Shown here: one piece after another, positions 7,797 through 48,453 of the stretch
Position numbering within the stretch: the first letter of the stretch is position 1
How the letters are laid out: each line of letters begins with the position of its first letter
DNA from: Planctomycetota bacterium
GTDB taxonomy: Bacteria; Planctomycetota; JAMOSO01
Direction of reading: 5' to 3'
NCBI GenBank assembly: GCA_027063065.1
Contig: JAMOSO010000007.1
Location: forward strand, 1,290-65,289
Length of the DNA: 64,000 nt
Program-made: the position numbers and the translations under genes
The notes under the pieces: model-generated
The model's input: the letters and a program-made list of their open reading frames with translations, nothing else
What the model was told of the DNA's origin: nothing
Database searches by the model: none

Positions 7797-9734
7797 TCAT
7801 GATATCTTTTTTAATTTAGCTTTAGCTTGTTTATAAAGATATTTGCGTTCAGTATTAATCATCATATTAATATCAGAATCAGTTATGTTATCATCAGATA
7901 ATAAATTTTTAATAGCTTTTCGTTCGGCAGCGCAAACATTGCCATCGGCTAGTGCTAGGCGTATTAATTGTCTTAAAACCTCATGTGTTTCTTTGTGATT
8001 TTTTAGATCTAATTTAAAATCAGGATTATTTTTAACGTGATTTTCAATGGAATTAAATAGTTTTTGACTAACATTTAATTTGTTTGCCATTTTTAATAAG
8101 GTTTCACGTTCTTTTATGTCGCGTTTGCCATCACTATCCATAACTAAAATCATAGCAGCAATTACTTCTTCAATTGGAATGTTATATAGTGGTGCTTCAA
8201 TTACATCTGGCAATTTGGCTTTGGCTTCGCTTATGGCGTCGTGATAATCTTCGTATTTATATGGTTCAATAGAATCTAAAACCCAATTTTTTAATCCGTC
8301 ATTTAAAGCTATACCACAATAACTACAGCAGTTGCTACTGTCTACAGTTTCAGGGGCTCCACAGCCTATACAACAATTTGCCGATAGAGCGTGTTTAGGA
8401 TTGCTAATGGCGTCTTTATGTCGACACATAATTAATTTATGCTTATATATACGAGAATTTAAAAAGCTGGGTACATCACCTGGTCCAGGTTTAGATTCTT
8501 GCCAACATCCAGACCAAGTTACTATAATATGGCAACGATTCATATCTGCTTTATTATCAAATCTAATAATTTCCACTGAGCCCACTGCTAAATCTTGTGC
8601 AAAAGTACGCATACCTTTTTGGTTTAATTGAAATTCGTTTTTGTGGATATTTAAAAATTTATTATTTGCCATTTTACTTAAATATTTAGCATTACAAAAA
8701 TATCTCGCACTGTGATATCGCCAAAACATAATAGAGGCTCTATCTTCTAGGTATTGAATATTTAATGCTTTATCTTGTTGTTTTAATTGGCTTGCTCCAG
8801 CAATTAAGTCTGGATTACGATGTTGAAATGCTTTAGCTTGGGTTATTTCTGAAAGTACCCAATCATATTCGCCACTGGTAATTAAGGCCTGACAAGACAT
8901 ACATTCTATTTTATCTGATAGCTTTAATGGTGATCCGCAGTTTGGACAAAACCCTTCAATCGCACCGCCTTGTTGTAATGTTTTAGTTCCTGGTTTGCGT
9001 AAAAACGACCAGTATTCTTTAAAGATATCTGTCGACAAAGAATATTTTTTATCTGAGCCTTCTTTAATATAATAATCTGCAGCAGATGCACTAATTGCTA
9101 CAATAATGACGTCAAAAAATTCATCGCATTTATATGATACTACATGTGCATCTTTAATGTCGATATCGGTAATTTTATTAATATATCCATTGGCTTTGTT
9201 TAATTCTAAATTTAGGTTTAATCTATCGTAGATGGCATCACTTAACATGCTTCTAACAGGAGACATGTTTTGGTTGTTCCAAGAATTTTGTAAAGCAAGA
9301 AAGGTTTGCTTGGCGCGTTCTAAAAATTGAATTTCATCAAAATTATTATCACGTTGAATTAATTTGTTTTTTTCATTGCGATTCATTGCAACATCATATT
9401 TGGCATTGCCTGTAGTGATGACATGGCTTTTATAAGAGTTAGCACCTCGTTGTGTACCAACTAAGCTAATATAACCACCTATTAATAACATAGGTATTCC
9501 AATTAATGGATGTTCAAGGCATAACCTAATTAATAAATATAATATTAAACCATCGCCAGAACCACCGCTGGAATGGCCTCCAGAGTATCCACCGCTAGAA
9601 TGGCTACTACCAAAGTTACCGCCACCGCCCATGCGTGCCCAAGTTTCGCTGGGCATAAATAATAGAATTATTAACGAGGCAAAGTATATTTGCCTCGGGG
9701 TTATTAAGCTTGTGAGTTTCCGCATTCTGGGCAA
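7797..9734 (-). CDS. membrane protein with Gly/Ser-rich segment, Tim44-like domain, two zinc ribbons and C-terminal TerB-like domain
   Basis: 645 aa. It has N-terminal hydrophobic segments flanking a GGGGNFGSSHSSGGYSGGHSSGGSG low-complexity tract. Two ZnRs are present: 'CPNCGSPL..x10..CMSC' and 'CIGCGAP..x9..CCSYCG'. The C-terminal tellurite-resistance/TerB-like helical domain reads 'DGKRDIKERETLL...ADGNVCAAERKAIK'. It overlaps the upstream SPFH gene by about 31 nt. Confidence 0.6.
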   Translation of the reverse strand: MPRMRKLTSLITPRQIYFASLIILLFMPSETWARMGGGGNFGSSHSSGGYSGGHSSGGSGDGLILYLLIRLCLEHPLIGIPMLLIGGYISLVGTQRGANSYKSHVITTGNAKYDVAMNRNEKNKLIQRDNNFDEIQFLERAKQTFLALQNSWNNQNMSPVRSMLSDAIYDRLNLNLELNKANGYINKITDIDIKDAHVVSYKCDEFFDVIIVAISASAADYYIKEGSDKKYSLSTDIFKEYWSFLRKPGTKTLQQGGAIEGFCPNCGSPLKLSDKIECMSCQALITSGEYDWVLSEITQAKAFQHRNPDLIAGASQLKQQDKALNIQYLEDRASIMFWRYHSARYFCNAKYLSKMANNKFLNIHKNEFQLNQKGMRTFAQDLAVGSVEIIRFDNKADMNRCHIIVTWSGCWQESKPGPGDVPSFLNSRIYKHKLIMCRHKDAISNPKHALSANCCIGCGAPETVDSSNCCSYCGIALNDGLKNWVLDSIEPYKYEDYHDAISEAKAKLPDVIEAPLYNIPIEEVIAAMILVMDSDGKRDIKERETLLKMANKLNVSQKLFNSIENHVKNNPDFKLDLKNHKETHEVLRQLIRLALADGNVCAAERKAIKNLLSDDNITDSDINMMINTERKYLYKQAKAKLKKIS

Positions 9735-22429: not shown

Positions 22430-23512
22430 ATGTCTATAAACAATGAAGCAAGAGATTTAGCACAAAGTATATCACAATTGGGTTCACATAGTGCTTTAGA
22501 AGAAATGCGTCATTTAAAAGGTGAGGCATTAGTTAAACGTTATTTAGAATTTTTAGCTAATTGCACCCTTGAAACAGTACATAGTTATCAAGTGCATTTA
22601 ATGCAGTTTTTTGAAGTAATTGGTACAGATGATATAGGCAAAGTTGATGGTGAAGCAGTTGCGGATTATATTTTTCATCTCAAGCAAGAAAATTACGCTC
22701 AAGATTCGATTAAATTAAAAATCGGACGCGTGATGGGTTTTTTGCGTTTTTGTAATGATTTAAATATGCTAAATTTCCCATTGGGCTTGTTATCTCATTT
22801 AATTAAAGCACCTAGAGTTCATACAAAAGAGTTAAGCAGTAAAGATATCTTTGATTTGGGTGATATAGAAAAGTTGGCAATGTATTTTAATACACGCATT
22901 TCTCAAGCTACTGTAGAAAACAATTTAAAAGCCATGCGTTTGGCATGGAGAGATAGGTTGATTTTTACGATAGGTCTTAATACTGGCATTCGAGTTAGTG
23001 AGATATCTAATATCCAAATTAAGGATATGATTCAATATAATGGAAAATGGTATATTAAGATTATTGGTAAGGGCTCTAAACATTTTGATGTTCCTTTATT
23101 AGGTAGAGATTTAACAGAGGTTATTAAACCATATTTACAAATTACAAAACGCACGATGGGTGATAGAGATAGTTATTTATTAATGAGTGATAGATCTAAA
23201 GGTTTAAAACCTCTTAATCGTACAGCTATTTTTAAAGTAATTAAAAAGGTATGTTTAGAAGCAGAGATATATAAAAATTTATCACCCCATTCTTTGCGTC
23301 ATACCTTTGCTACAAATTTAGCCTTGCAGGGTGCCGATATTCATACGGTTAAAGAAGCTTTACATCATGAAAGTATCACTACTTCAGAGCGATATATTCA
23401 TATGGCTCAGCAGTTAAAGGATAAAATCCGTAATTATATACCAGGTGTGGTATTAAATGCGCAAAAGGGTGGGGAAGTTTATATTAATTATCATGCAGGT
23501 TATAATTTATAA
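22430..23512 (+). CDS. site-specific tyrosine recombinase (XerC/XerD family-like)
   Basis: C-terminal catalytic region carries R (LNTGIRVSE), 'HSLRHTFAT' and 'SERYIHM' (the Tyr). The N-terminal SAM-like core-binding domain is present. Confidence 0.6.
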   Translation: MSINNEARDLAQSISQLGSHSALEEMRHLKGEALVKRYLEFLANCTLETVHSYQVHLMQFFEVIGTDDIGKVDGEAVADYIFHLKQENYAQDSIKLKIGRVMGFLRFCNDLNMLNFPLGLLSHLIKAPRVHTKELSSKDIFDLGDIEKLAMYFNTRISQATVENNLKAMRLAWRDRLIFTIGLNTGIRVSEISNIQIKDMIQYNGKWYIKIIGKGSKHFDVPLLGRDLTEVIKPYLQITKRTMGDRDSYLLMSDRSKGLKPLNRTAIFKVIKKVCLEAEIYKNLSPHSLRHTFATNLALQGADIHTVKEALHHESITTSERYIHMAQQLKDKIRNYIPGVVLNAQKGGEVYINYHAGYNL

Positions 23513-24792: not shown

Positions 24793-26229
24793 TTAGTTAT
24801 GTATATGTGTTACTGTAAAATGAGTAATATTTTTGCCAATTATTTTAACCTGTTCACCACGATTGATAAAGCAACCTTCAGTAACTACATCAATGGTTTT
24901 ATCATTGATAATTATTTTGCCACTGGGTCTTAAATCGGTGGAGGCTATACCAATTTGATTTATTAAGTCGTCTTGACTGTTGGAGCAGGTGATGCTTTTG
25001 TCTAATGTAGTTTTTAAAGCTATAGCGTTAAAAACTGGTACATCTGGCAAATAATAGGCCAATATTAAAAATATAACTATTGAGGTTGCAAATGAGCCAG
25101 ATAAAATTTGCATTTGGGTAAATACAAAATCAGTTTGCAATGGCGTATCAGGGATAATTATTCCACCGGTGAAGGATAAAACTAAACCCATTAAAAATAA
25201 TCCAAAGCCAATCAAACCAAATAGCATAGTGCCAGGAATAATAAATAATTCTATTACGATAAGTACAATGCCTGTAAAAACCATAATAATATAAGGTATA
25301 TCAGCTAAGCCAGATAAATAGCGTGCACCTAATAAAATACTAAAACAGGCGATAGATGTTAAACCAGGCATTCCAAAGCCAGGCATTTTAAATTCTGTCC
25401 ACATGGCGACAAGCGCAATAATTAATATGATTGAACTAACTCCACTAGAGGTTAAATACATGGTTAAATTTTCTGACCAATTTGGTTTAATAGAGGGAAG
25501 TTCTTGAAGGTTATAATATTGTTTAAGTTCACTTATATCTTTTATATTAGCTTTAGAAAATCCCATTTCCAAGGCTTCACTGTTGTCTATGGTTAATAAT
25601 TTGCCTTTAGCTATGATGGTCTTTTTTTGAGTATAACGATTTTTTTTGATTTTTGATAAATCTTGATATTGCTGTTTGCTTAGGTAAGTGGTTTTGCCAT
25701 TTAATTTAAATTTATAAACTTCTATGCTCTGATCGACAAAAGCTTCAGCTAATGGTTGCGAATAACCATTGCGTCTGGCAAATGATCTAAATTGAGAGCG
25801 TAAAACGGTTTCTATTTTTTCGCCAGCTGGGGTTGGTGCGCCATTGTTGCCTCCTACGATTGGTTGGCAATCACCTATTTGTGCTCCGTGTGTCATTATT
25901 ATTTCATTGCAACTCATACTAATTAAAGCCCCCGCAGAGATGGCTCTAGTATTGACCCATGCAATGGTTTTAATCTTTGGATTTGTATTAATTGTATCGC
26001 AAATTTTTAATGCACTATCTACTCTGCCACCAAAAGTATTTAGTTTGTATATAATAATATTTACACCGTTTTTGATTGCTTTTTGGGTGGCATTTTCAAT
26101 GTGCATAGCAAGACTGGGGCTTATTTCTCCGTCTATATTGATAAGCACAGCTTTAGTTTTGGTTGATTCTTGAGCTTGTATATGCAAGCAAGAGATAAAT
26201 AATGTAACAAAAATAGTTATATATTTCAT
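24793..26229 (-). CDS. NfeD-like membrane-bound ClpP-class serine protease
   Basis: 478 aa. Signal peptide, a ClpP/SDH-like domain, about four TM helices, and a C-terminal NfeD OB-fold. Confidence 0.7.
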   Translation of the reverse strand: MKYITIFVTLFISCLHIQAQESTKTKAVLINIDGEISPSLAMHIENATQKAIKNGVNIIIYKLNTFGGRVDSALKICDTINTNPKIKTIAWVNTRAISAGALISMSCNEIIMTHGAQIGDCQPIVGGNNGAPTPAGEKIETVLRSQFRSFARRNGYSQPLAEAFVDQSIEVYKFKLNGKTTYLSKQQYQDLSKIKKNRYTQKKTIIAKGKLLTIDNSEALEMGFSKANIKDISELKQYYNLQELPSIKPNWSENLTMYLTSSGVSSIILIIALVAMWTEFKMPGFGMPGLTSIACFSILLGARYLSGLADIPYIIMVFTGIVLIVIELFIIPGTMLFGLIGFGLFLMGLVLSFTGGIIIPDTPLQTDFVFTQMQILSGSFATSIVIFLILAYYLPDVPVFNAIALKTTLDKSITCSNSQDDLINQIGIASTDLRPSGKIIINDKTIDVVTEGCFINRGEQVKIIGKNITHFTVTHIHN

Positions 26230-26936
26230 TGATTGTTTGATTGTGCGTATGCATCAACCACCTTTTTATTAATCATTGAGGCTTGATATCCAGCCCCAAA
26301 TCCATTGTCAATATTTACCACCGATATACCGGCAGCACAAGAATTTAACATGCTTAAAAGGGGTGCTAATCCGTTAAAAGATGCTCCATACCCAACTGAG
26401 GTTGGCACAGCAATAACAGGAGTATCTATTAAACCTCCGATTACAGAAGGTAATGCTCCGTCCATACCAGCAACGACAACCACGGCATTTGCTTGCTTAA
26501 TTTGATTTATTTTTGCCAAAATTCTATGCAGTCCTGCCACACCACAATCACTTATGCGGATTACTTTGCTACCTGTTACCTCTGCGGTAACGGCGGCTTC
26601 TTCAAAGACAGGCCTGTCGCTTGCACCAGCTGATATTATGGCTATTAATCCAGATTGCTGAATGGGTTGATTATGTATTATTATTGTGCGTGCTATTGGG
26701 TTGTGTTGTGCGTTTGGATATATAGCTAATATTTTATCTGCTGTTTTGGATGATACTCTTGTGCCAAAAAATATTTTATTTTGGTCAGTAAAGTGTTTGA
26801 CTATAGTCAAAATATCTTCGGTAGTTTTTTCGGCACAGTATATAGTTTCAGGCGCAAGGCATCTTTTTTGGCGGTGTGCATCAATGCAAATATGCTCTAA
26901 ATCTTGATAATAATCATTTAAATGGTTTTGGTTCAT
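26226..26936 (-). CDS. larB: LarB-like PurE-fold protein (nickel-pincer cofactor biosynthesis / AIR carboxylase-related)
   Basis: 236 aa. The C-terminal PurE-like block reads 'VVVAGMDGALPSVIGGLIDTPVIAVPTSVGYG'. The N-terminal LarB-specific extension is present. It overlaps nfeD by 4 nt (ATGA). Confidence 0.65.
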   Translation of the reverse strand: MNQNHLNDYYQDLEHICIDAHRQKRCLAPETIYCAEKTTEDILTIVKHFTDQNKIFFGTRVSSKTADKILAIYPNAQHNPIARTIIIHNQPIQQSGLIAIISAGASDRPVFEEAAVTAEVTGSKVIRISDCGVAGLHRILAKINQIKQANAVVVVAGMDGALPSVIGGLIDTPVIAVPTSVGYGASFNGLAPLLSMLNSCAAGISVVNIDNGFGAGYQASMINKKVVDAYAQSNNQ

Positions 26937-26937
26937 A

Positions 26938-28461
26938 TTAAAAGAATCCTGAAAAATCTACATTGGGTAATGGCAGGTCGCCTTTGATTTTAATAGGATA
27001 GATTTGATTTTTTTTGACTGTGGGATCTAATTTGTTAAATCCTGTTAATCCTATATTTAAATTAAGATAGTTTGGTGCTTTAAAATATCCATTTAAATAT
27101 GTATCAAATGATGATGGGCTATTGATTTGAATATCTTTTAATTGATATTGGTTGTTTTTAAATATTAATTTGCCAGAGTTAATATTAAAATCATATTGAT
27201 TGGGTATGGTTTGGATAATATTTGCTATTTGGTGTTGGTTGTGATTATTAGCTTGTGTACTGATGGGAAATTGCAATCCTATCTTTATAAATTTAAACCA
27301 TTGTGCATTTATATGTCCGTTGCGTAAACGTGGCTCGGCATTAAAACTTAGATGATGCATAATAGGATTGTATTGCCAACCTTTGGTTTGTAAATCATTA
27401 ATGGCAACATTTAATTGTCCTGACACACCCGCTAATGATGAAAATTTTGATTGAATCATTTGTGTGATGTCTAAATTACTAATATTGCCATTGGCTGACC
27501 ATACAGGATTGGTGTTATTTATATTGCCAGATAAACTACCTGTTGCTATGCCATGAAATATAGATGCGTGGTTAAGATTTATACTTAGCAGACCATTATC
27601 TAAAAAACTTTCCAACTGTATATTTTTGATGGGTGCAATCGGTGTTTGTAAAATATCAAGCGATGCTTTGTTGTTAAGTGTAATCTTGTTATGATTTGCC
27701 TTAGTTATTTGTATAGTTCCATTAGTATTAAAGTTTTTAAATGAGTATCCATTAGGTAAAAGTTCTGGAAAGTTTAGTTTTAGCATATCATCATTTTGAA
27801 TTGTGATACTGTAATCAAAACTGTGTTGATTATGATTTGAAATACCAGACAATACTATCTTGCCAATGGGCGTAAATATGGTGGTATCTTGAATACTAAT
27901 CAAGTTGTTTTGTAGTGCAATTTTAATATTAAATTCTATTTTGCAAGCGCTTAAATTGACTGGGTGTAAACCTAATGCTAATGGCGTTGCTTGTAGATTT
28001 GCCGTTGTATAACCTGTAAAAAATAGTTTTTTAGTGTTGCCATTTATTTGACAATTTAAATTAATATTTTTTAAGTTAATTTTATATTGATTTAAATAAA
28101 TCTTAAAATTTGCGTGTTTAAAGTTTATGTTTTCTATTTTTAGTTTACCTTGTAAAAGCGATGGCGTGTCAACTTGCGCCAATATTTTTTTGGCATCAAA
28201 AACATTTTTTTTATGCCTTAAGTGCATATTGCTGATTTGAATATCAGATTTATTTAAGCCTGTACTAATTTGTAAGTGTTTTAATTTACAGTCCCCTTGT
28301 ATATATGTGCTTAATACTTGTTCTAGTTTAGCTTTTGTTGATTTGCTAGAAAGATAATTAGATATTATATTTGGCAGAATAACAGTGCTTGTTATTAAAA
28401 AAATTATCAGTCCAACCGTGCCAAAGATAATAGCTTTATTGTAAGTTTTAGATATTTGCAT
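26938..28461 (-). CDS. AsmA-like membrane-anchored Asn-rich protein
   Basis: 507 aa. N-terminal TM anchor, then a long Asn/Ile-rich beta-rich region. The family assignment is tentative. Confidence 0.4.
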   Translation of the reverse strand: MQISKTYNKAIIFGTVGLIIFLITSTVILPNIISNYLSSKSTKAKLEQVLSTYIQGDCKLKHLQISTGLNKSDIQISNMHLRHKKNVFDAKKILAQVDTPSLLQGKLKIENINFKHANFKIYLNQYKINLKNINLNCQINGNTKKLFFTGYTTANLQATPLALGLHPVNLSACKIEFNIKIALQNNLISIQDTTIFTPIGKIVLSGISNHNQHSFDYSITIQNDDMLKLNFPELLPNGYSFKNFNTNGTIQITKANHNKITLNNKASLDILQTPIAPIKNIQLESFLDNGLLSINLNHASIFHGIATGSLSGNINNTNPVWSANGNISNLDITQMIQSKFSSLAGVSGQLNVAINDLQTKGWQYNPIMHHLSFNAEPRLRNGHINAQWFKFIKIGLQFPISTQANNHNQHQIANIIQTIPNQYDFNINSGKLIFKNNQYQLKDIQINSPSSFDTYLNGYFKAPNYLNLNIGLTGFNKLDPTVKKNQIYPIKIKGDLPLPNVDFSGFF

Positions 28462-28690
28462 AATTAATTAAAATGTCCTTAAATAGAAATTACATTGTAA
28501 TGCCTTTGTTAATGGATGCAATTGTACCTATCTTCTTTTGCAAATAGAAAATGTTAAATAAATAATAGAAAAAGATATTTATTAATCAATTATAGGTATT
28601 AAATTGTAATTAAGCTTAAATCTAATCATAAGCTTATATTATTTGTTAAAGTTAAATATAGTAATAACAACAAAATAAAGGTGAAATTCT

Positions 28691-31600
28691 ATGAAGGCGT
28701 ATTTTAAAATAATTTGCATAATATTGGTAATCACTGGTACAGCTTATGCCAATCAAAATTGGCCAATGTATCGTGGTGATAATCAGCGTAGTGGCATAGT
28801 AGATGCCAAGCTAACATTGCCATTGCAAACGTCATGGGTGCATAAGCCTTTAAATGAGCCTAATCCATCTTGGCCAAAACCAGCTAAGCAAGATTTTTGG
28901 CATCGTGTTGCTAAATTAAGTCCAACAACTATTTATGATAGGGCATTTCATCCAATTATTTTTAACGGTATGGTTGCTTATTCATCATCTGCGGATGATA
29001 CCGTTTATTGTTTGGATGCAAAAACAGGCAAAAACATTTGGCATTTTAGCACTAACGGTCCTGTTAGACTGGCACCTGCATATAAAGAAGGCAGGTTGTA
29101 TGTTGGTTCTGATGATGGATATTTGTATTGTCTTAATAGCAATAATGGTGAGTTGATTTGGAAATTTTGGGCTGGCGATGACAAACAACGTTTGTTTTTG
29201 GGTAATTCGCGTTTGATTTCTCGTCAACCTGTGCGTACAGGAGTTGTTTTTAAGGATGGCTTTGTTTATGTAATAGCAGGCTTATTTGCTAAAGAATCTA
29301 TTTGTTTATCTGCTGTTAATATGCAAACAGGTAAAGCTAAATATAAAACAAAAGTAGATGTGCCAGCTCAAGGATATATCACTTTATTTAAAAATAAATT
29401 AAGTTTTCCTGTGGGGCGTACTGCACAGGCTGTATATAATATAGAGACAGGCAAAAAACTTTTTAGCTTTGCGCCAGGCTCAAATGCGGCTGTATATGAC
29501 AATTTGTTTTTTTCTGGTGTTGATGAAAGGGGCTTTGGAACATTGTTTTTAGTCGATGATGGCAAAAAAACAGTTGTGGCTAAGCTTCAGGCACATCAAA
29601 TAACAGTTATTAAAGATATTTTATATGTTTTTACTAACAACACCATAACTGCCTATAAAAGAAATGATTTTGTAAATTCGTCAGTTAAATATAGTCAATT
29701 AGCTTTGGTTAAGCATAACCAGCGAGACGCCAAATGGAAAGCTGCCGCAAAAGCTGCTTTAAAAATAAAGCAAAATAGCAAGTTATGGAGCGCACCTGTA
29801 CGCGAAAACATCTCAGTTATTACTACGGCAGATTATTTTATTTTGGGATGTAAAAATAAAGTTGTGGCAGTGTCAAAAACAGCAGGAAAAATTTTATGGC
29901 AGGCAAAAACAGAAGGAAAAATTTATGGCTTGGCAGTTGTAGATAATTGTTTGGTTGCCGCTAGTGATAATGGTAACATTTATTGTTTTAATAATGTTAA
30001 TAAGAAAACGCCTACAAATATTATTACAACTTCTAAAAAAACACCAGAGGCTACATATCAGCGTAATTATGATGACAGTTTGTCTAATGCTTGGATATTT
30101 TCAAAGTCCAGCATTGATAAAGGATTTGTAAAGGATCAAAAAGGCATTAGGGATGTGGCTGTTCCAGTGGCGCAAATAGTAACGGATAAAAAAAATAGTT
30201 ACCTTAAATTGTCAGGTAAATCTTGTGTGTCAGTAGGTGATGAAACTAATATCAATCTTTTACCTAAAAAAGCATTTACATTGGAAGCAATAGTTTTAAT
30301 TAGTAAACCATTAAAATGGGGCGGTATTATTGGTGCATTTCAAGATAATGGCAACGATGAACATGGTTGGGTGTTAGGTTTTTTAAATCAACGCTTTATG
30401 TTTGGGCTTAAATGCAAAGATTCAAAACAATTAACTTATTTAAAATCTGCTCAAAATTTTAAGCTTCATACTTGGTATCATGTGGTTGCTACTTATGATG
30501 GCACAGATATGGTGCTTTATATAAATGGTAAAAAATCGGCCTCGTCTAAAGCCCAACGGGGTGAGATAGATTACAGTAAAAACTTTTTTTATGATATCGG
30601 CAGTTATCACGATGATAATGAATTTTATAAAATGTCAGGACGTTTGTTAGAGGTTGCTGTATATTCTAGTGCATTGACAGCTACACAGGTTGCGGAAATG
30701 TCAGATTTTCTTAAACCTTGGATGCCTGTTGTAAAATTAGCATCTAAGAACTCAAAAGGTAATGTGATATCTAAAGATTTGTATGGCGAACCCAGTGTCT
30801 TATTTGATTATCGTGGTATTTGCACAATATCTTTTACAGAAAAAATGACATTAGATACAAAGGTGGCTTATGGCACAGATCGTAATCAGCTAGAAAAAAC
30901 ACTATCGCCAAAAAATGCTCAGGTGGTGATTAGTGATTTGCAACCCAACACTAAATATTATTTTACAATAGTACCCGCTAACGGGAAAAAAACAAAAATA
31001 TATGAAATGCATACCCCAATAAATCCTTTTAAAACCAAACAAATACAAAGTAGTGTTGCTAAAGTTGCAGAACAAATATTAAAAGCAGGTAATGTTACAA
31101 AAGGGTATTGTTATATTTTAGATTTTGATAATGGTGATTTAGCTTTAGCTTTGGCATCTAAAAGCAATTTGCAAATAATTGGCATTGCTACCGATACTAA
31201 AAAAGCAGCTTTAGTTAGAGAAAAATTTAGAAAAACGGGTTTACTAGGTACGCGTATTACGGTTTTAAATCTAAAAGATTTAAAAAAATTGCCAGCTCGT
31301 ACGGCTAATATTATTACATCAGAGTTATCATATAAAACTAATACATTGCCAGATTATGATGATAAATTAATTAAAAGACTTTTACGTCCTAATGGTGGTA
31401 CTTCTGTTTTTATTACCAGCCAAAATAGTATGGTGTATAAGCGTCCGGCGTTAGAAGGTGCTGGTAGTTGGACACATATCTATGCAGATAGAGGTGCAAG
31501 TGCCAATAGTCAAGATTCTTTAATTACATCAGATATGGAGATTCAATGGTTTGGCCGTCCAGGACCAAGGCGTATGGCAGATAGGCATCATAGGCAAATG

Positions 31601-32758
31601 CCACCTTTATATAGCAATGGCAATTTATTTATTTTAGGCAATAATTATTTATATGGTGTAGATGCTTATAATGGCACAATTTTATGGGAACGAGGCATAC
31701 CTAAATCAAGACGATTAGGTGTGATGTATGATACTGGTATTATGGCGGCATCGGCAGATAAATTATATATTGGTTCGGGTGATAAATGCTTGGCTTTAGA
31801 TGGACGCAGTGGAATAGTAGAAAAAAGTTTTGCCATCTCTTATAAAGATAGTGAAGTTGGTTATATTGCTATTGATAATGATAATTTAATTCTTTCAGCT
31901 CAACCTACAAACGCTTCATGGAATAAACTTTATCGCAATAATGCATTAATGGAAGGTGATTTTAGGCCTATTGCTTGTAGCAGAGCTTTGTTGTCGTATT
32001 CAGTTGCTTCGCAACAAATCAAATGGAAATATAAAAATGGTATTATTTTTAACCCAGCCATTGTGCAAAGCGATGATGCCATTTATTTTTTAGAATCTCG
32101 TAATCCAAACTTGATGAATAAGCCAGACGGTCGTTTTGGTATAAAAGATTTATTGGCAGATGGTTATGGTTTTTTAGTTGCCTTAGATTTAAAGACGGGC
32201 AAAAAATGTTGGCAACAAAAAGTAGATTTACCTTTTACTAATATTGTCTTTTTAAATTATAGTCATAATGTTGTTGTGGCTAGCGGTAGTTACAATATGG
32301 ATAAGCACGTAAAATATCAAGTGTCTGGATACGATGCTAAAGATGGTAGTTTAAAATGGCAACATGATGCGTCTTTAAAAGGTATCAAAATTAATGGAGC
32401 TCATGGTGAGCAATGGCAACATCCATTTATATTAAATGGCGCAGTGATATTACAAGCTCACGTTATTGATTTAGCTACTGGCAAAATCAAAAGAGGAGTA
32501 AGAGCAATGGCGCGCAATGGCGGTGGATGTGGTACTATGTCATGTAGTGCTAATTTTACTTTTCAGCGCTACCGTTATCCAACCCAAAAAAATCTAAAAA
32601 CAGGTGTATTGTCAAAATTGACCACAGAAATTAAACCGGGATGCTGGATTAATATGATTCCTGCTGGTGGGATGGTTTTAATTCCAGAAGCTAGTTCTGG
32701 ATGTACCTGTGCCTATGCTATACAAGCTTCAATGGCTTTGGCGCCTAAAGAAGAATAA
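28691..32758 (+). CDS. secreted multidomain protein: PQQ-like beta-propeller / LamG / FN3 / methyltransferase-like / PQQ-like beta-propeller
   Basis: 1355 aa. Signal peptide. Repeated 'DxxxYxLDxxTGKxxWxF' PQQ/BamB-like blades occur at both ends. A LamG-type jelly-roll sits centrally ('HTWYHVVATYDGTDMVLYINGKK'), followed by an FN3-like segment ('LQPNTKYYFTIVPANG'), then a Rossmann-like segment ('CYILDFDNGDLALAL'). Confidence 0.75.
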   Translation: MKAYFKIICIILVITGTAYANQNWPMYRGDNQRSGIVDAKLTLPLQTSWVHKPLNEPNPSWPKPAKQDFWHRVAKLSPTTIYDRAFHPIIFNGMVAYSSSADDTVYCLDAKTGKNIWHFSTNGPVRLAPAYKEGRLYVGSDDGYLYCLNSNNGELIWKFWAGDDKQRLFLGNSRLISRQPVRTGVVFKDGFVYVIAGLFAKESICLSAVNMQTGKAKYKTKVDVPAQGYITLFKNKLSFPVGRTAQAVYNIETGKKLFSFAPGSNAAVYDNLFFSGVDERGFGTLFLVDDGKKTVVAKLQAHQITVIKDILYVFTNNTITAYKRNDFVNSSVKYSQLALVKHNQRDAKWKAAAKAALKIKQNSKLWSAPVRENISVITTADYFILGCKNKVVAVSKTAGKILWQAKTEGKIYGLAVVDNCLVAASDNGNIYCFNNVNKKTPTNIITTSKKTPEATYQRNYDDSLSNAWIFSKSSIDKGFVKDQKGIRDVAVPVAQIVTDKKNSYLKLSGKSCVSVGDETNINLLPKKAFTLEAIVLISKPLKWGGIIGAFQDNGNDEHGWVLGFLNQRFMFGLKCKDSKQLTYLKSAQNFKLHTWYHVVATYDGTDMVLYINGKKSASSKAQRGEIDYSKNFFYDIGSYHDDNEFYKMSGRLLEVAVYSSALTATQVAEMSDFLKPWMPVVKLASKNSKGNVISKDLYGEPSVLFDYRGICTISFTEKMTLDTKVAYGTDRNQLEKTLSPKNAQVVISDLQPNTKYYFTIVPANGKKTKIYEMHTPINPFKTKQIQSSVAKVAEQILKAGNVTKGYCYILDFDNGDLALALASKSNLQIIGIATDTKKAALVREKFRKTGLLGTRITVLNLKDLKKLPARTANIITSELSYKTNTLPDYDDKLIKRLLRPNGGTSVFITSQNSMVYKRPALEGAGSWTHIYADRGASANSQDSLITSDMEIQWFGRPGPRRMADRHHRQMPPLYSNGNLFILGNNYLYGVDAYNGTILWERGIPKSRRLGVMYDTGIMAASADKLYIGSGDKCLALDGRSGIVEKSFAISYKDSEVGYIAIDNDNLILSAQPTNASWNKLYRNNALMEGDFRPIACSRALLSYSVASQQIKWKYKNGIIFNPAIVQSDDAIYFLESRNPNLMNKPDGRFGIKDLLADGYGFLVALDLKTGKKCWQQKVDLPFTNIVFLNYSHNVVVASGSYNMDKHVKYQVSGYDAKDGSLKWQHDASLKGIKINGAHGEQWQHPFILNGAVILQAHVIDLATGKIKRGVRAMARNGGGCGTMSCSANFTFQRYRYPTQKNLKTGVLSKLTTEIKPGCWINMIPAGGMVLIPEASSGCTCAYAIQASMALAPKEE

Positions 32759-32768
32759 AATTAATTAG

Positions 32769-33641
32769 TTATGATTTAGGGTTTTTATGGTACTGATCAC
32801 GGTAATGTTTAGGTGATTGACCGATAATAGTTTTAAACGCTCGGCTAAATGCGTATATATTTTCATAGCCACATTCTTGGGCAATCGTACTGATGCGCAT
32901 ATCAGTAGTGCCTAATAATTTACATGCTTTATGACTTTTAACTTCGCGGATATATCGGCCTAGGCTCATGCCAAAACTTGTTTTAAAAATAAAACTCAAA
33001 TGCGATACAGAACAACATAGACTTTCAGCAAGCTCTGCAATCTGTAAATTTTTATGTATTTGATTATGAATTAATGGCAAAACAGATTCTAGTAATGAAG
33101 AAGGTATAGGTTGGTTATTGGCACAAATAGGGTCTTCATCGATTTTTTGCAATAAATAATGATTTAATAATTCAGCAGCTTGCAAATTTATAGCTCGTAG
33201 ATTACTTATAGAGTTATCTTCATCTTGATATAGTTCTAGCATTTGTTGTGTGTGTTTTATGGCTTTTGAATCGATATTGGTGGTATGAAAACGCAAGTGG
33301 TTTAATTCTTCTGATGAATAATGATCAGGTAATGCAAATGTAGTAAATAACCAAGTAGGATTTGGTGGTACATCAATATAATAATGTTGTTGAAATGGAA
33401 AAATCAAATAAGCATGCATCGGTTCAAAGGGTATTAGTTTGCCATCGACACATAAAGTACCGGTTGTTTTAAAGTTTTGTATTAATACAAAACGGTTGTG
33501 TTGATCAGGTGTAGTATTTGCAAATAATTTAGGTGCGCAAAAACAAATTATGTTTTTTGGAATGACAATTTCCGGTATAGCTAACCCTCTAAAAAATTGT
33601 GGGGGATTAGGTAGATTTCTGATTTGTTGGCACACATCCAT
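32769..33641 (-). CDS. AraC-family transcriptional regulator
   Basis: C-terminal double HTH: 'ISTIAQECGYENIYAFSRAFKTIIGQSPKHYR'. Confidence 0.8.
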   Translation of the reverse strand: MDVCQQIRNLPNPPQFFRGLAIPEIVIPKNIICFCAPKLFANTTPDQHNRFVLIQNFKTTGTLCVDGKLIPFEPMHAYLIFPFQQHYYIDVPPNPTWLFTTFALPDHYSSEELNHLRFHTTNIDSKAIKHTQQMLELYQDEDNSISNLRAINLQAAELLNHYLLQKIDEDPICANNQPIPSSLLESVLPLIHNQIHKNLQIAELAESLCCSVSHLSFIFKTSFGMSLGRYIREVKSHKACKLLGTTDMRISTIAQECGYENIYAFSRAFKTIIGQSPKHYRDQYHKNPKS

Positions 33642-33772: not shown

Positions 33773-35608
33773 ATGGATAAATTCATTATTAAAACACCGC
33801 ACTCAGCTAGTAACATTATTGATTTTGCTGCGATAGAATTACAAAAATATCTTTGTAAGGCTAATTTAGATTTATATTTTAATAACTCAGATTTTCAGCT
33901 GATATATCATTTGAAACTTGATAATAATTTAGATTCAGATGGGTTTTCTATAGCTGTAGATGATAATAATATATATTTGATAGGTTTAAATGAACGATCA
34001 GTTTTATTTGCTGTTTACACTTATTTAGAAAAATATATTGGCTTTAGCTGGCCACATGTTGGTGAAGATGTTTATTCTAATAAGTCTATTGTATATCCAT
34101 CTACTGCTAAAGAAGATTTTAAACCAGATTTTTTTGATCGTGGTTTTAATTTAGAAACAGGTTTTACAGATGATGATATGTTATCCTTTGTTGATTGGAT
34201 AGCTAAAAATCGAATGAATACTGTTGCTATACCGTTTCATTGTTGGGATAAATTTAAAGATATAGTATCTCAACAAATTATAAAACGTGGTATTAAATTA
34301 GTATTAAGTGGTCATTCTTATTTTAAATTTTTACCTAAAGAAAAATATTATGCCGATAACCCTCAATGGTATGCTCTTATTGATGGCAAACGCAAAGAGA
34401 CGGGTCAATTATGTTTTGCTAATAAGCAGGCTATTGATACCTTATATAAAAATGTTTTAGACTATTTAAATCAGCAACCGACAGTATCAAGGTTGTCTAT
34501 ATGGCCAGCTGACAATAAACAATTATGCGAATGCGAACAATGTTCTCAATTTAGTTTCTTAGAAAATTATTGTCGGTTTACCAGTAATTTAAAAAGTTTT
34601 TTGGCAGACAAAGGTTATGTTATTGAAGTTGACCATTTAGCATATAATGCAGCGTTATCAGAGACTATGTTGCATGCACCAGATAATGCCGATGCCCATG
34701 AAAATATTGATACACAACTTGCGTTTTGGGGTCGCAATTATAAATTTCCTTTGGCAGAATCACCAATTTTAACCGATCAAAAATCAAAGGATACTATCGT
34801 TAATTGGTCAAAATTAAGACAGGCAAAATCACAGTCCTTATATATTTTAGAATATTATACTGATTACTGGATGTTAAGCCCGTTATTTCCACCGCTAACT
34901 AATGTGATTGCAAAGGATATGAGTTTTTATAAAAGTATTGGCGTACAAGGTATGTATTCATTATGCGTAGGGTGTTCATTTGGTTTTTTTAAAGGCAAGG
35001 GATATCCTTGGCAATGGCGTCAAGGTTTAAATATGTACGTGTTTGCCAAGGCATGTTGGGACAGTAATTTAGACGTTGATGCAGTATCGGATGCATATTT
35101 CACAGATTATTATGGAGAATATGCTCAGGAGGCAACTAAAATATTTAAAATTTTAGAGCAAAATTTACCATCTTTAACATCTTGTAATATACCATTATTT
35201 AGATTGCGATTTGTTGATATTTGGCAACGTGATGAAACGCCAGAAGAAGGTGGCGTGATGTTTGACCCGCAAGACTGGCACCCAGAGCAATGTCAAAGTA
35301 ATGCCGAAAAAACTAGGGCACTTTTATGCAAAGAAGTTACACAAAATTTTATCAAATGTACCCCAAAAAGTTTTGGTGATAAAAAGTCAATTTACTATGA
35401 CAGGTATATGCACGCGTATAAATATTATGACTATTGTAAAAATAAATTAATTGCATTAAATGCTCAATTAGAAGCTCAACAAGCCATACAGAATGGCGAT
35501 AAAAAATATGCTATTAAATGTTTACAGCAAGCATTGTCATTGCAACATAAATTGTATAATCAAAATATTGATAATTGTAATAAATGGTTAAAAATATTAA
35601 CTGAATAA
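33773..35608 (+). CDS. GH20-related DUF4838-like putative glycosidase
   Basis: 611 aa. An N-terminal GH20b-like segment and a central TIM-barrel-like region. It is divergently paired with the AraC regulator. Confidence 0.45.
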   Translation: MDKFIIKTPHSASNIIDFAAIELQKYLCKANLDLYFNNSDFQLIYHLKLDNNLDSDGFSIAVDDNNIYLIGLNERSVLFAVYTYLEKYIGFSWPHVGEDVYSNKSIVYPSTAKEDFKPDFFDRGFNLETGFTDDDMLSFVDWIAKNRMNTVAIPFHCWDKFKDIVSQQIIKRGIKLVLSGHSYFKFLPKEKYYADNPQWYALIDGKRKETGQLCFANKQAIDTLYKNVLDYLNQQPTVSRLSIWPADNKQLCECEQCSQFSFLENYCRFTSNLKSFLADKGYVIEVDHLAYNAALSETMLHAPDNADAHENIDTQLAFWGRNYKFPLAESPILTDQKSKDTIVNWSKLRQAKSQSLYILEYYTDYWMLSPLFPPLTNVIAKDMSFYKSIGVQGMYSLCVGCSFGFFKGKGYPWQWRQGLNMYVFAKACWDSNLDVDAVSDAYFTDYYGEYAQEATKIFKILEQNLPSLTSCNIPLFRLRFVDIWQRDETPEEGGVMFDPQDWHPEQCQSNAEKTRALLCKEVTQNFIKCTPKSFGDKKSIYYDRYMHAYKYYDYCKNKLIALNAQLEAQQAIQNGDKKYAIKCLQQALSLQHKLYNQNIDNCNKWLKILTE

Positions 35609-44550: not shown

Positions 44551-46323
44551 ATGTTACCTAAAAAAGATTTTGTTTTTCTGGATAACGCATTAAAAAGTGA
44601 ATCTGGTTTTGGTTTTGGAAAGCATCAATTGCTTTTTACTAACCCACATAAGCAGTTGGTGTTAAAATCATTTAAACAGGTCAATTCATTTTTTGATGAT
44701 ATAGAAAGGTTATCTAAAAATTTTTGGTTAGCTGGATATTTTACTTATGAGCTAGGTCATTATTTTAATACAGGTATAGCCAAAGCAATAAATACTCCAC
44801 TGGCTTGGCTTGGTGTATTTGATGAACCAAAAGAACCAAATCAAAATTTTTTATCGATGACGCAATCATTTGATATGTCCCAAGGGGCTTTATCACAAAC
44901 CAAGCAAGAATATTTTAAAGCTATTGATTTAATTAAATTAGCCATTGAATCAGGTGTTACTTATCAGGTTAATTATTGTTTAGCATATTTGTTTAAACTC
45001 TGCGGAGATCCGTGGGGGCTTTATAAATTTATGCGTTCTCAACAACCAGTGTCCCATGGGGCTGTATTACAATGTGCAAATATGTGGGCTATTTCAGCTA
45101 GCCCAGAATTGTTTTTTAATTGTAAGTCAAATAAATTACGATCCAAGCCTATGAAGGGTACAGCTTGTCGAGGGCGTAATAATTATGAAGATAACCAACA
45201 ATCTAAATGGTTGCAAAATGATATAAAATCACGGGCAGAAAATGCAATGATTGTAGATTTATTACGCAACGATATTGGGGCGTTATCTGAGTTGGGCTCA
45301 GTTAAAGTGAAAAATTTATTTGATATAGAAAAATACCCAAGCTTATTGCAAATGGTATCTAGCGTTGAAGGTAAATTAAAAAACAATACATCTTGGCAAA
45401 CAATGTTTACAAAGTTATTTCCCTGCGGTTCTATTACTGGTGCGCCAAAAATATCTACGATGCATTTAATTGATCAATTAGAGACTCGGCCTAGAGGTGT
45501 TTATACAGGTGCAATAGGTTATATACATAAAAATTTAGCAGAATTTTCTGTGCCGATCAGAACGGTTCAGTTACAAGAAAATCCCTTGGGTGATTTTAAT
45601 GCAAGCTTAGGCTTAGGTAGTGGAATTATTATGGATTCTGATGCACAATCAGAGTTTGATGAATGTTTACTAAAAGCAAAATTTTTGCAATATAGATACC
45701 CAGATTTCCAATTGTTAGAAACTATGTTATGTAAAAATGGTACTATAGAGTTATTGGATTATCATTTAAATCGAGTGCGAGAGTCGGCTATTTATTTTGG
45801 ATGGGATTTAAATCATCAGTTAATTAAGCAACAAATATTGTCTTTAATCGTAAGCTTAAAGGGATATTATCGTATCAGAATGTTAATTTTTAAAGATGGT
45901 CGATGTAAAATTGAAAAATTTTCTTTTAAAACAGATAAATCTAATCAATTACTTAATGTAACAATTAGTAATCAGCGTATAGATTTGAAAGATTGTTTTC
46001 ATTTGCATAAAACTACTAATAGAAGTTTTTACGATAAGCAATTTTCTATGGCACAAAAACGGGGCTTTGCAGATATTGTATTTTGTAATAAAGATGGTTT
46101 GCTTACACAAGGTGCTATTAGCAATATTTGGATTAAGCGTAAAGGTGTACTATTGACCCCGCCTGTTTATGTGGGTGCGTTGCCAGGTGTTTATCGCCAA
46201 TATTTATTGGATAGGGGGGCAAAAGAATCAAAATTATATTTAGATGATTTAAAAAATGCAGATGAAATATATTTATCTAATGCCCTGCGTGGTTTGCGCA
46301 GGGTTACATTAAATATTAATTAA
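44551..46323 (+). CDS. pabB: aminodeoxychorismate synthase component I fused to aminodeoxychorismate lyase (PabB-PabC)
   Basis: Chorismate-utilising core 'PCGSITGAPK' and a 'KPMKGTA' motif carrying Lys, which is PabB-type rather than TrpE-type Ala. The C-terminal roughly 200 aa are class-IV aminotransferase/ADC-lyase-like. Confidence 0.75.
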   Translation: MLPKKDFVFLDNALKSESGFGFGKHQLLFTNPHKQLVLKSFKQVNSFFDDIERLSKNFWLAGYFTYELGHYFNTGIAKAINTPLAWLGVFDEPKEPNQNFLSMTQSFDMSQGALSQTKQEYFKAIDLIKLAIESGVTYQVNYCLAYLFKLCGDPWGLYKFMRSQQPVSHGAVLQCANMWAISASPELFFNCKSNKLRSKPMKGTACRGRNNYEDNQQSKWLQNDIKSRAENAMIVDLLRNDIGALSELGSVKVKNLFDIEKYPSLLQMVSSVEGKLKNNTSWQTMFTKLFPCGSITGAPKISTMHLIDQLETRPRGVYTGAIGYIHKNLAEFSVPIRTVQLQENPLGDFNASLGLGSGIIMDSDAQSEFDECLLKAKFLQYRYPDFQLLETMLCKNGTIELLDYHLNRVRESAIYFGWDLNHQLIKQQILSLIVSLKGYYRIRMLIFKDGRCKIEKFSFKTDKSNQLLNVTISNQRIDLKDCFHLHKTTNRSFYDKQFSMAQKRGFADIVFCNKDGLLTQGAISNIWIKRKGVLLTPPVYVGALPGVYRQYLLDRGAKESKLYLDDLKNADEIYLSNALRGLRRVTLNIN

Positions 46324-47326
46324 TTTTTTTTGCTTCAATTAGCCAGTGAGGCAATGGGGCTGGCAATTTTGTGGTGCAAGCATTTTTAAAATTGGCATTA
46401 CTTAACCATTGTTTTATTTCTGTATCGCTAAAAACCCACCCATTGTCAGTAGTGAGAGCCATATTGATAGCAAACAAAGCCGAAAACGTAGGTTGTGTAT
46501 GGGTTTTATCTGTCATCATATCTAAAATATAAATTTTACCACCCGGTTTTAAAGCTGTATAAGCTTTTGATAATAACTTTTTTATGTCCTCGGGACTTTC
46601 TTGGTGTAGCATACCAAAAAAATTAATGGCATCCATATTTTGTGGAAATTCTATTTCATGATAACTACCTGCTAAAGTGCTAACTTGTTGATCCATATTA
46701 TGATCGGTAATGATTTCTTGCGCCACTTTTACGACTTCTGGTAAATCTAGTACGATTGATTTTAATCGTGGGTAGGCTTTGGCAATTAAAATGGAGTATG
46801 TGCCGGGGCCACCACCAATATCAAGTAGTCGTGAACAATTGTTATAATCTAAGTGTGGTATTAGACCTTTGCCAATTGCCATAGCTCTACCGTGCATTGA
46901 ATAAACAAAAGTTCTAGTTCTGTTTAAATCACTGCCTAGGTGTATTTCTGGTTTTTCTACTGGCTTACCAGATTTAATTAATTGTGGCAATTTACCCCAT
47001 GCATTATATACATCACGGTTATAGCGAATGGCTTTAGATAAATCTGCGGGTGAATTTTCACTTAAAAATATGGAGCTTATTTCTGTATTATTATAGGTAT
47101 CATTATTTTTTTGTAATAATTGTAGGGCGACACAACCATCTAACAATAATCTTGCACCACGTGTATCTATTTTTAAATCTTTGCTGATGTGTTGAATATC
47201 TTGATTTGGATTGTTTTGTAGATATGTAAAAACACCTAAATCACTGGCAGTGAATAAAATACAAGAGTCATAAAAAGCAGAAGCCATATCAGTAATATAT
47301 TTTGGATTTATTTTATTAGATTGCAT
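46316..47326 (-). CDS. class I SAM-dependent O-methyltransferase (COMT-like, with dimerisation domain)
   Basis: 'LLDIGGGPGTYSILIA' motif I, plus an N-terminal winged-helix dimerisation region. Confidence 0.75.
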   Translation of the reverse strand: MQSNKINPKYITDMASAFYDSCILFTASDLGVFTYLQNNPNQDIQHISKDLKIDTRGARLLLDGCVALQLLQKNNDTYNNTEISSIFLSENSPADLSKAIRYNRDVYNAWGKLPQLIKSGKPVEKPEIHLGSDLNRTRTFVYSMHGRAMAIGKGLIPHLDYNNCSRLLDIGGGPGTYSILIAKAYPRLKSIVLDLPEVVKVAQEIITDHNMDQQVSTLAGSYHEIEFPQNMDAINFFGMLHQESPEDIKKLLSKAYTALKPGGKIYILDMMTDKTHTQPTFSALFAINMALTTDNGWVFSDTEIKQWLSNANFKNACTTKLPAPLPHWLIEAKKIN

Positions 47327-48437
47327 TTATTTTCTCCATGGCGAAATAGTATTCGTTAATAATTGATTTGGTTAAACCAATATTTTGTAAATTTGTTGGC
47401 AGTACATTAAAAGTGTAGGTTTCGATTTCAAAATGTTTTACACCAATTTTTAAAGCCGTTTTAAAAAAATCTAAATCAATTTGATTATTGGTAGTTTTTA
47501 TATTGTCATAACCATTAAAATAAATCGGCAAATGAAAATGTATTCTCATCTCTTGCCATAAATCAGTATTTTGTTGCATAATGTCTGGTGATAAATCGCT
47601 AAAACTTAAAATATTTTTATTTGTTTTTATTTTAACTTGATGTAAATATTTATCATCGTAAAACTCGTGCAATAAATTTTGTTGAAAATTTTTATCAATA
47701 CGCAAAGCGGAAGATATTTGTATTTTATTAATAGGTATATTGGCGGCGTGTAGATTAAGTAAGCTTTGGGTTAAGTTCTCATATTGAATAGCTAAATGGC
47801 AGGTATCAAAACATAGTCCAATATATTGTTGAGTTATATTATTTAATTGTTGATAAAAATCAATAAATTCTTGGCTAGTTTCTATACAACAGTCAGGTTC
47901 TGGTTCAATGGCAATATCAATATGTTTGCCAGTTTTTAATTCTATGTGTTGTAAAAATAGAGCAATATCATTTAATTTTTTTTTGGATTGTTTAATTTTA
48001 TCCCAAGAATTATTATTGGTTTTATATGAGATGGGTATACTACTAATCGATCCATTAATATTGTCTGGTAATAGCTCAGCCATAATATTGCAAACTCGTT
48101 TAGAGTATTGCAATCTTTCTGATGAGGTCCAGTCGGGATAGTATACCTTTGTTTTTAAATTTGGAGTAAAAAAATCACCATAGGGAAAAGCATTTATTGT
48201 AAAACAATATAAATTATGTTTGATTAAAAACTCTTTAAATCTGTTTAAATTATTTGGTTTTTCTAGCTCTATAGAGGCTTTATTAGATAGGTATAAACCT
48301 AATCCAAATGGTTGATCAGGGCATATTTGATTTTTTATTTTTAGTGAATATTCTTTAATAGCTAAGGAAATTTCATCAATATTATTTGCATTATGTACGT
48401 TAAGGCAATAGGTTAAATGGCAATTTTGAATTTGCAT
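47316..48437 (-). CDS. EboE-like TIM-barrel (xylose-isomerase-like) protein, putative
   Basis: 373 aa. Its position after the DHQS-like and UbiA genes matches the eboC-eboD-eboE order. The fold assignment is inferred, not motif-proven. Confidence 0.45.
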   Translation of the reverse strand: MQIQNCHLTYCLNVHNANNIDEISLAIKEYSLKIKNQICPDQPFGLGLYLSNKASIELEKPNNLNRFKEFLIKHNLYCFTINAFPYGDFFTPNLKTKVYYPDWTSSERLQYSKRVCNIMAELLPDNINGSISSIPISYKTNNNSWDKIKQSKKKLNDIALFLQHIELKTGKHIDIAIEPEPDCCIETSQEFIDFYQQLNNITQQYIGLCFDTCHLAIQYENLTQSLLNLHAANIPINKIQISSALRIDKNFQQNLLHEFYDDKYLHQVKIKTNKNILSFSDLSPDIMQQNTDLWQEMRIHFHLPIYFNGYDNIKTTNNQIDLDFFKTALKIGVKHFEIETYTFNVLPTNLQNIGLTKSIINEYYFAMEKINAI

Positions 48438-48453
48438 ATTTAATAAATGTCAG

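Follow-up and report, generated by a model that had tools for sequence, protein, structure and literature searches.

We analyzed a plus-strand gene in a 64-kb stretch of contig JAMOSO010000007.1 from a Planctomycetota bacterium; this whole stretch of 64,000 nucleotides is called the window, and the product of the gene the window protein. The 1355-aa protein belongs, as a divergent member, to a large family in which a signal peptide is followed by an eight-bladed beta-propeller, a class-I methyltransferase fold, and another eight-bladed propeller. In this member, a LamG jelly roll and a fibronectin type III (FN3) domain are inserted after the first propeller and ahead of the methyltransferase fold, the S-adenosylmethionine (SAM) site of that fold has decayed, and glycan-related genes lie close by. 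The architectural part of this description is much more secure than the functional part. On whether the window protein is, as we propose, an extracytoplasmic, glycan-directed protein, a Sec-exported divergent member of its family, our confidence is evenly divided. The gene and the parts of its product are located as follows.

28691..32758, plus strand: complete open reading frame (ORF) with ATG start, 1355 aa plus stop codon
28691..28750, plus strand: Sec-type signal peptide, aa 1-20, MKAYFKIICIILVITGTAYA followed by NQNWP, read by eye from sequence features
28751..30025, plus strand: N-terminal eight-bladed beta-propeller of the BamB/PQQ_2 type, aa ~21-445 (PQQ_2 E = 1e-20 on this piece; P0038 model; Foldseek)
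30254..30694, plus strand: LamG/concanavalin A-like jelly roll, aa 522-668 (Laminin_G_3 and PDB matches)
30788..31024, plus strand: FN3-like domain, aa ~700-778 (9-sequence profile against PDB)
31049..31441, plus strand: class-I methyltransferase-fold (Rossmann) module, aa ~787-917 (model, Methyltransf_25, family profile)
31463..32755, plus strand: C-terminal, family-specific eight-bladed beta-propeller, aa 925-1355 (motifs RHxR, HGEQWQHP, GGGCG, PGCWIN, and PEASSGCTC)
32528..32710, plus strand: region of the four invariant cysteines C1280, C1318, C1338, and C1340 (alignment of 200 members)

Pfam detected four stretches of PQQ_2 repeats, located toward the two ends of the protein (E = 2.6e-34, whole protein). 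An earlier note on this DNA, made from the sequence alone, had placed PQQ-like propellers at both ends, in agreement with this result, and had taken them for split halves, which they are not. The N-terminal propeller carries a short helical insertion (aa ~326-375), and its Foldseek match is BamB (E = 1e-18). Blades at this end were counted on the full-length model of a 1092-aa core homolog, P0038 (predicted local distance difference test [pLDDT], 92.8; predicted template modeling score [pTM], 0.91), in which the N-terminal part forms 32 strands, equal to eight blades, with a long helical hairpin inserted, and is followed by a Rossmann module and a second propeller. The other end was covered by an AlphaFold2 model of window residues 776-1355, made from a 67-sequence alignment (pLDDT, 91.9; pTM, 0.93). 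It consists of an alpha/beta module and then ~31 strands, the C-terminal fragment folding alone into a complete eight-bladed propeller. Similarity between the two propeller regions of the window protein does not exceed the motif level (BLASTP E = 2e-4 over 69 aa). With eight blades each and only motif-level similarity, these are therefore two complete, dissimilar propellers; a single propeller split in two was ruled out on the strand counts, the models, and the sequence comparison. No solved structure in the Foldseek search spanned more than one propeller (query-normalized TM-score, ≤0.27), and the packing of the domains against one another is a prediction that takes its support from the high pTM.

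The module between the propellers alternates helices and strands in a Rossmann pattern in the model of aa 776-1355. By itself, the window segment scores 18.3 bits against Methyltransf_25, below the cutoff of 27; homologs of the segment reach 34 to 38 bits for Methyltransf_25, Methyltransf_31, and Methyltransf_11, above the thresholds (27 for Methyltransf_25), and the family profile matches a SAM-dependent methyltransferase (PDB 3dlc) at E = 8.7e-13 over ~158 positions. Because the homologs pass the Pfam threshold and the profile matches 3dlc, we conclude that the module is derived from a class-I methyltransferase. The SAM-binding signature is another matter. At the motif I positions 811, 813, and 815 (window protein numbering), Gly is found in 79, 61, and 95 of 120 homologs, respectively, versus Asp, Asp, and Gly in the window protein, where the motif reads D811-F-D813-N-G815; the post-I, SAM-ribose-binding residue is Glu or Asp in 102/120 homologs and A833 here. 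The family's own invariant residues of the module (G805, R843, P900, and G902/G903) are all kept. Judged by its sequence, the window protein has lost the SAM-binding motifs, in line with the degenerate motif I that had been noticed in a Rossmann-like segment before any homologs were compared.

Most of the Sec-exported family members keep the GxGxG of motif I together with the acidic post-I residue. No extracytoplasmic source of SAM is known, which leaves this conservation in an exported family unexplained; nor is any methyltransferase known to act in the periplasm.

The LamG and FN3 domains belong to a lineage-specific insertion (aa ~450-775) in the linker that joins the methyltransferase fold to the first propeller, and its alignment columns are filled in only ~6 to 7% of 120 homologs; LamG plus FN3 at this position occurs in only ~8 of these top 120 homologs. 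The LamG assignment is strong, with Laminin_G_3 (PF13385) scoring 76.3 bits (cutoff, 27.6; E = 3.6e-21) over profile positions 12 to 151 of 151 and with pappalysin LamG modules as PDB matches. On a single sequence, fn3 gives 14.5 to 18.6 bits, under the Pfam cutoff of 25, and Pur_ac_phosph_N matches the excised FN3 piece at a subthreshold E of 3.8e-5. A profile of nine homologous segments, when compared with PDB, matched numerous FN3 domains, including those of fibronectin (E = 8.7e-10); the same profile also aligns, over positions 10 to 87, to the FN3-like N-terminal domain of purple acid phosphatase. All four domain types named in the earlier note (propeller, LamG, FN3, and Rossmann-like) held up under hidden Markov model (HMM), profile, or structure tests, and the center of the protein is not a further run of propeller blades.

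Residue conservation was counted over 200 nonredundant family members. The most invariant polar feature of the family is a set of four cysteines, present as CCCC in 197/200 members, with gaps or truncations accounting for the three exceptions. C1280 lies in GGGCG, C1318 in PGCW, and C1338 and C1340 in SSGCTC, a loop that is the sole stretch of the aa 776-1355 model with a pLDDT of <50. Residues of catalytic type are also well kept (R965, ≥97%; H966, 189/200; E1333, 192; H1238, 169; E1240, 156; H1244, 156), less strictly than the structural Cys, Gly, and Trp residues. According to the secondary structure of the model, the conserved polar residues occupy loops leading into the inner strands of the blades. 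In propellers, such loops usually border the face at the central channel, and we predict this location for the conserved residues. On the C-terminal propeller, the predicted face, with RHxR, HGEQWQHP, and E1333, is a putative catalytic or ligand-binding surface. The window protein has R965, H966, R968, H1238, E1240, H1244, E1333, and all four cysteines. It departs from the consensus at near-invariant positions (W1056V, R1315K, F1101L, and G1068L), and because of these changes and the lost SAM motifs we regard it as a divergent family member.

The family itself is large. A homolog search returned 455 proteins, the bulk of them 1050 to 1100 aa long and built of signal peptide, propeller, methyltransferase fold, and propeller. 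Full-length identity to the window protein is 66% for P0002, the closest homolog, which comes from a metagenome-assembled genome (MAG) of Verrucomicrobiota; it is 49% for P0003 and 41% for P0004. A scan of one genome per species identified at least 593 loci in Planctomycetota, Verrucomicrobiota, Kiritimatiellota, Hydrogenedentota, Omnitrophota, Nitrospirota, Calditrichota, Armatimonadota, Bacteroidota, and Acidobacteriota, with loci also in anammox bacteria and in cultured Snuella lapsa (Bacteroidota). Homologs fall mostly in the Planctomycetota-Verrucomicrobiota-Chlamydiota (PVC) group, where the earlier note had suggested looking for them. When the C-terminal propeller alone was used, 715 cluster representatives (50% identity) out of 1.84 billion matched at E ≤1e-30, nearly always at the extreme C terminus of the matched protein. 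Other members carry LamG, NPCBM, PA14, malectin, or CHB_HEX_C modules, and LamG is N-terminal in P0005 to P0010; since different modules sit at different positions, modules of sugar-binding type have been acquired repeatedly. In the source annotation, members are called "BamB" or "PQQ-binding-like" beta-propeller repeat proteins, and we found no dedicated Pfam or NCBIfam model for the family. The window protein has every definable feature of this uncharacterized propeller-methyltransferase fold-propeller family. Its composition, which had seemed unusual when the protein was viewed alone, is the conserved core of the family; only the LamG and FN3 insertion is rare.

The suggestion that the protein is secreted also gains from the family comparison. 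Read from the sequence, its N terminus has the MK..K charge, a hydrophobic core, and an A-x-A site with predicted cleavage between AYA and NQ; there is no Cys at +1, hence no lipobox. In 109/120 homologs, a signal peptide-like hydrophobic N terminus leads straight into the propeller, which begins with a conserved (D)WPxY, and the window protein follows this layout, with MKAYFKIICIILVITGTAYA leading into NQNWPMYRGD, i.e., a signal peptide and then the WPxY start of a PQQ_2-type propeller. The window protein is probably exported and soluble, either in the periplasm or at the cell surface.

Two genes downstream of the window gene are relevant to its possible function.

32769..33641, minus strand: AraC-family regulator, convergent with the window gene (HTH_18 E = 9.4e-21)
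33773..35608, plus strand: DUF4838 protein with a glycoside hydrolase domain of the GH163/GH185 type (PF16126 E = 1.2e-37)

In both GH163 and GH185, DUF4838 forms the catalytic domain; the GH163 enzyme BT1035 acts on complex N-glycans, and GH185 is a 6-sulfo-beta-GlcNAcase (PMC10570127). Inspection of its N terminus revealed no signal peptide in the window DUF4838 copy, which resembles a signal peptide-less cluster of DUF4838 proteins described in the same paper (PMC10570127). Carbohydrate-related genes are neighbors at each of the four loci examined in the LamG-plus-FN3 subclade: the window has the AraC and DUF4838 genes; at P0003, only 4 bp separate the family gene from a GH9 gene upstream, and GH130 is close by; P0004 has GH2, a sulfatase, a PL22-type lyase, and an AraC regulator as neighbors; and the P0002 gene lies between two Gfo/Idh/MocA oxidoreductase genes.

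Family-wide, only three partners recur: an FtsX-like permease (7 loci), an ATP-binding cassette (ABC) ATPase (15 loci), and a protein that we call c1, which adjoins the family gene on the same strand in 15 of ~80 loci.

L018:435-1673 and L005:4505-5698 (plus strand in both) and 13 other loci: protein c1, ~400 aa, adjacent to family genes

c1 is often accompanied by the permease and the ATPase. Its sequence features are a signal peptide, a membrane anchor at the C terminus, and two invariant elements, namely, a Cys at what is predicted to be the mature N terminus (A-C-R-Y-x-V-R-E) and the motif C-E-C-G-L-D; it matched no Pfam, NCBIfam, or PDB profile. In hmmsearch, the window proteins included no homolog of c1 or of the FtsX-like permease; the c1/FtsX/ABC partners are not in the window, and a conserved operon around the window gene was ruled out for this reason. 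At three loci (L020, L021, and L072), two family copies lie a few kilobases apart, with SBP_bac_11 solute-binding proteins and an ABC ATPase between them.

The ORF is not an assembly artifact, since protein P0001 on an independent public assembly is identical to the window protein and has the same neighbor genes. Its coordinates, strand, and ATG start are as first called, and so are the divergent intergenic region and the ribosome-binding site upstream.

28462..28690, no strand: divergent, AT-rich intergenic region of 229 bp, bounded by the ATG at 28691 and by the start, at 28461, of a 507-aa gene on the minus strand
28678..28683, plus strand: Shine-Dalgarno sequence AAGGTG, 7 nt 5' of the ATG, read from the sequence

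Sigma-70-like sites in the 229-bp region occur at chance level (26 versus 22.8 ± 4.8 expected from shuffled sequence) and therefore identify no promoter. The product of the divergent neighbor gene (26938-28461, minus strand) is 507 aa long, has a membrane anchor at its N terminus, and is rich in Asn, Gln, and Ile; it has no Pfam, NCBIfam, or PDB sequence match. Beyond it, between the gene for this 507-aa protein and a gene for an NfeD-type membrane protease, is the gene for LarB of nickel-pincer cofactor biosynthesis (26226-26936, minus strand; NF033503, 281 bits versus a cutoff of 175).

Other annotated genes of the window are mostly housekeeping. Adjacent genes at 46316-49602 (minus strand) encode an O-methyltransferase (Methyltransf_2 plus dimerization domain), a xylose isomerase-like TIM-barrel protein, and a 3-dehydroquinate synthase-like protein, and these three could be a small-molecule cluster of the sugar-phosphate cyclase type. 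The gene at 7797-9734 (minus strand) encodes a protein of 645 aa in which Tim44-like and TerB domains are combined; the same domain pair occurs ~3 kb from P0006 in a Planctomycetaceae MAG (L086:14747-16495, minus strand), probably by coincidence. A tyrosine recombinase gene (22430-23512) adjoins a poly(A) polymerase-like gene. The GC content of the window is 30 to 38%, and GC skew is positive almost throughout; scans of the 64 kb for tRNA genes and for Rfam families (at gathering score) returned nothing.

How might such a protein work on glycans? In our proposal, the three core modules would form one rigid unit, periplasmic or extracellular, with the methyltransferase fold acting here as a structural hub and not as an enzyme. 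The four cysteines would staple the closing blade through two disulfides, or bridge it through a metal, in an oxidizing compartment. LamG, held on the FN3 spacer, would be the carbohydrate-binding module and would direct the propeller platform to a polysaccharide or glycoconjugate, so that the window protein would work extracytoplasmically on glycans. These could be captured, and possibly processed, outside the cytoplasm, upstream of the glycosidase of the GH163/GH185 type, itself presumed cytoplasmic and AraC controlled, which would make the window protein part of an AraC-controlled route of uptake and degradation.

Several points weigh against this proposal. LamG domains bind proteins too, not glycans alone. 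The four loci with carbohydrate-related neighbors are a small sample from genomes that are rich in carbohydrate genes, and across the wider family no CAZyme (carbohydrate-active enzyme) family is enriched among 139 immediate neighbors. In S. lapsa, the family gene is found among ribosomal and translation genes, and the recurrent c1, FtsX-like, and ABC partners point to an envelope machine rather than to nutrient capture. As for the structural part, the N-terminal blades were counted on P0038 and not on the window protein; where the conserved residues lie, how the cysteines pair, and which contacts the domains make are inferred rather than seen. Searches by architecture, name, or Pfam identifiers found no publication on the family.

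A rival reading is an enzyme, in which the C-terminal propeller would, as in the beta-propeller polysaccharide lyase and glycoside hydrolase families, be the catalytic domain of a new extracytoplasmic glycan-processing class (lyase or hydrolase), with Arg, His, Glu, and Tyr on one face doing the chemistry and LamG as its carbohydrate-binding module. The loops into the inner strands, as modeled, hold the conserved R965, H966, E1333, H1238, E1240, and H1244; family members bear several kinds of accessory modules of carbohydrate-binding type; and the LamG-plus-FN3 subclade lies in CAZyme contexts. Multiple copies, usual for degradative enzymes with diverse substrates, are found both in MAGs with two loci (L013 and L050, L036 and L040, L029 and L069, L048 and L073, and L025 and L074) and at the loci with two copies each (L020, L021, and L072). 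Yet the putative catalytic His and Glu residues are 78 to 96% conserved, below the structural Cys, Gly, and Trp residues, the wider family lacks CAZyme enrichment, and the Pfam similarity to the lambda-carrageenase propeller is faint and limited to homologs. We consider an enzyme unlikely on balance, though a serious contender; the suggestion of a surface or periplasmic binding protein in the earlier note stands as a possibility, but binding is not distinguished here from catalysis. The greater conservation of structural residues would suit instead a noncatalytic, BamB-like envelope scaffold that forms a periplasmic machine with the FtsX-type ABC system and membrane-anchored c1, the window copy being a specialized paralog. 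BamB and BamB-like binding proteins are the nearest folds, c1, the permease, and the ATPase would together make a complete module, and the housekeeping context in S. lapsa fits as well. Against this, the window has no c1 or FtsX-like homolog, the window protein fails the BamB models and has no lipoprotein signal, and a housekeeping scaffold does not usually carry inserted modules of carbohydrate-binding type or occur in several copies in one genome. For the window protein we judge a scaffold quite unlikely.

Other readings can be set aside with more assurance. An active SAM-dependent methyltransferase whose propellers hold the substrate would draw on the homology of the module to class-I enzymes and on the GxGxG and acidic post-I residue kept by most members. 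In the window protein, however, two of the three motif I glycines are Asp, the ribose-binding acid is Ala, and the Pfam score is subthreshold; on the motif I and post-I residues, activity was ruled out for this protein. Its Sec signal peptide would, in addition, take it to where SAM is not generally known to occur, and we find an active methyltransferase scarcely credible. Pfam matches to PQQ (pyrroloquinoline quinone) repeats and the sheer layout of a large exported multidomain protein with FN3 and LamG could also suggest a PQQ-dependent dehydrogenase or an adhesin, both very improbable in our view. The dehydrogenase model TIGR03075 gives 52.8 bits versus a cutoff of 480.05, and the propellers, at ~420 aa each, are BamB-sized, compared with chains of 560 to 600 aa for the PQQ-dependent dehydrogenases among the PDB matches. 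Membership in the PQQ dehydrogenases or in BamB was ruled out on curated score cutoffs. Pfam (E ≤1) detected no autotransporter barrel, LPXTG, type IX secretion system C-terminal domain, PEP-CTERM or other C-terminal signal, or stalk-type repeats, and the C terminus is the conserved last blade that closes the propeller; with no anchoring or sorting module detected, the adhesin-like character once proposed for the protein has no support.

A bolder idea concerns the whole family, which might be a new extracytoplasmic enzyme system. In it, the methyltransferase-fold module, whose canonical SAM-type motifs persist in most exported members, would bind a nucleotide-like donor outside the cytoplasm, the cysteine-bearing propeller would act on envelope or environmental glycans, and the Cys-rich c1 and the FtsX-type ABC system would mature, energize, or supply it; the invariant four-cysteine cluster would then be a metal site or a redox or cross-linked center, and the window protein a LamG-targeted derivative that has lost the donor site. 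We regard this as decidedly improbable. The family is common in polysaccharide-degrading and environmental bacteria, yet we found no model, solved structure, or paper for it, and the annotation labels "BamB" and "PQQ-binding" both fail membership tests for the window protein. Two points should be of interest to specialists: the retention of SAM-type motifs by a class-I methyltransferase fold in exported proteins and the strict invariance of the four cysteines that cluster where a propeller ends. A catalytic family would be a new module in the toolkit with which PVC bacteria turn over carbohydrates, and a scaffold family would represent a new envelope machine with a link to FtsX/ABC. For the window gene, the meaning is more modest: a divergent, LamG-bearing member beside a glycosidase and its probable regulator.

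Among known systems, BamB (YfgL) and the BamB-like eight-bladed propellers Rv3035 and YxaL provide the nearest folds, and the window protein shares their eight-bladed fold. It scores 84.1 bits against TIGR03300 (cutoff, 285.2) and 62.9 against NF008351 (cutoff, 423), failing both BamB models. Unlike BamB, it has no lipoprotein signal, it joins two propellers in one chain through a methyltransferase fold, and its C-terminal propeller is marked by invariant motifs of its own and by four cysteines; we found no evidence linking it to the BAM complex. With PQQ dehydrogenases it shares the repeat type. Identity to PQQ-dependent alcohol and glucose dehydrogenases and to tetrathionate hydrolase is 10 to 19%, and nothing suggests a PQQ or Ca/lanthanide site. 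The class-I SAM methyltransferases (Methyltransf_25, Methyltransf_11, and Methyltransf_31; PDB 3dlc and 3bus) are homologous at the family level, whereas the window protein lacks motif I and the post-I acid, and its module is exported and placed between two propellers.

A relationship to the beta-propeller polysaccharide lyase and glycoside hydrolase families is conceivable, the match to the lambda-carrageenase propeller being faint and seen in homologs. The multimodular carbohydrate-active proteins of PVC bacteria and Bacteroidota share LamG and FN3 modules and export with the window protein, and in the window subclade the neighboring glycoside hydrolase, lyase, sulfatase, and AraC genes are alike. 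The window protein differs from them in having no recognized catalytic CAZyme domain and in carrying LamG and FN3 internally and not at an end. What is new here is a previously undescribed, conserved arrangement of known folds in a multidomain exported propeller protein.

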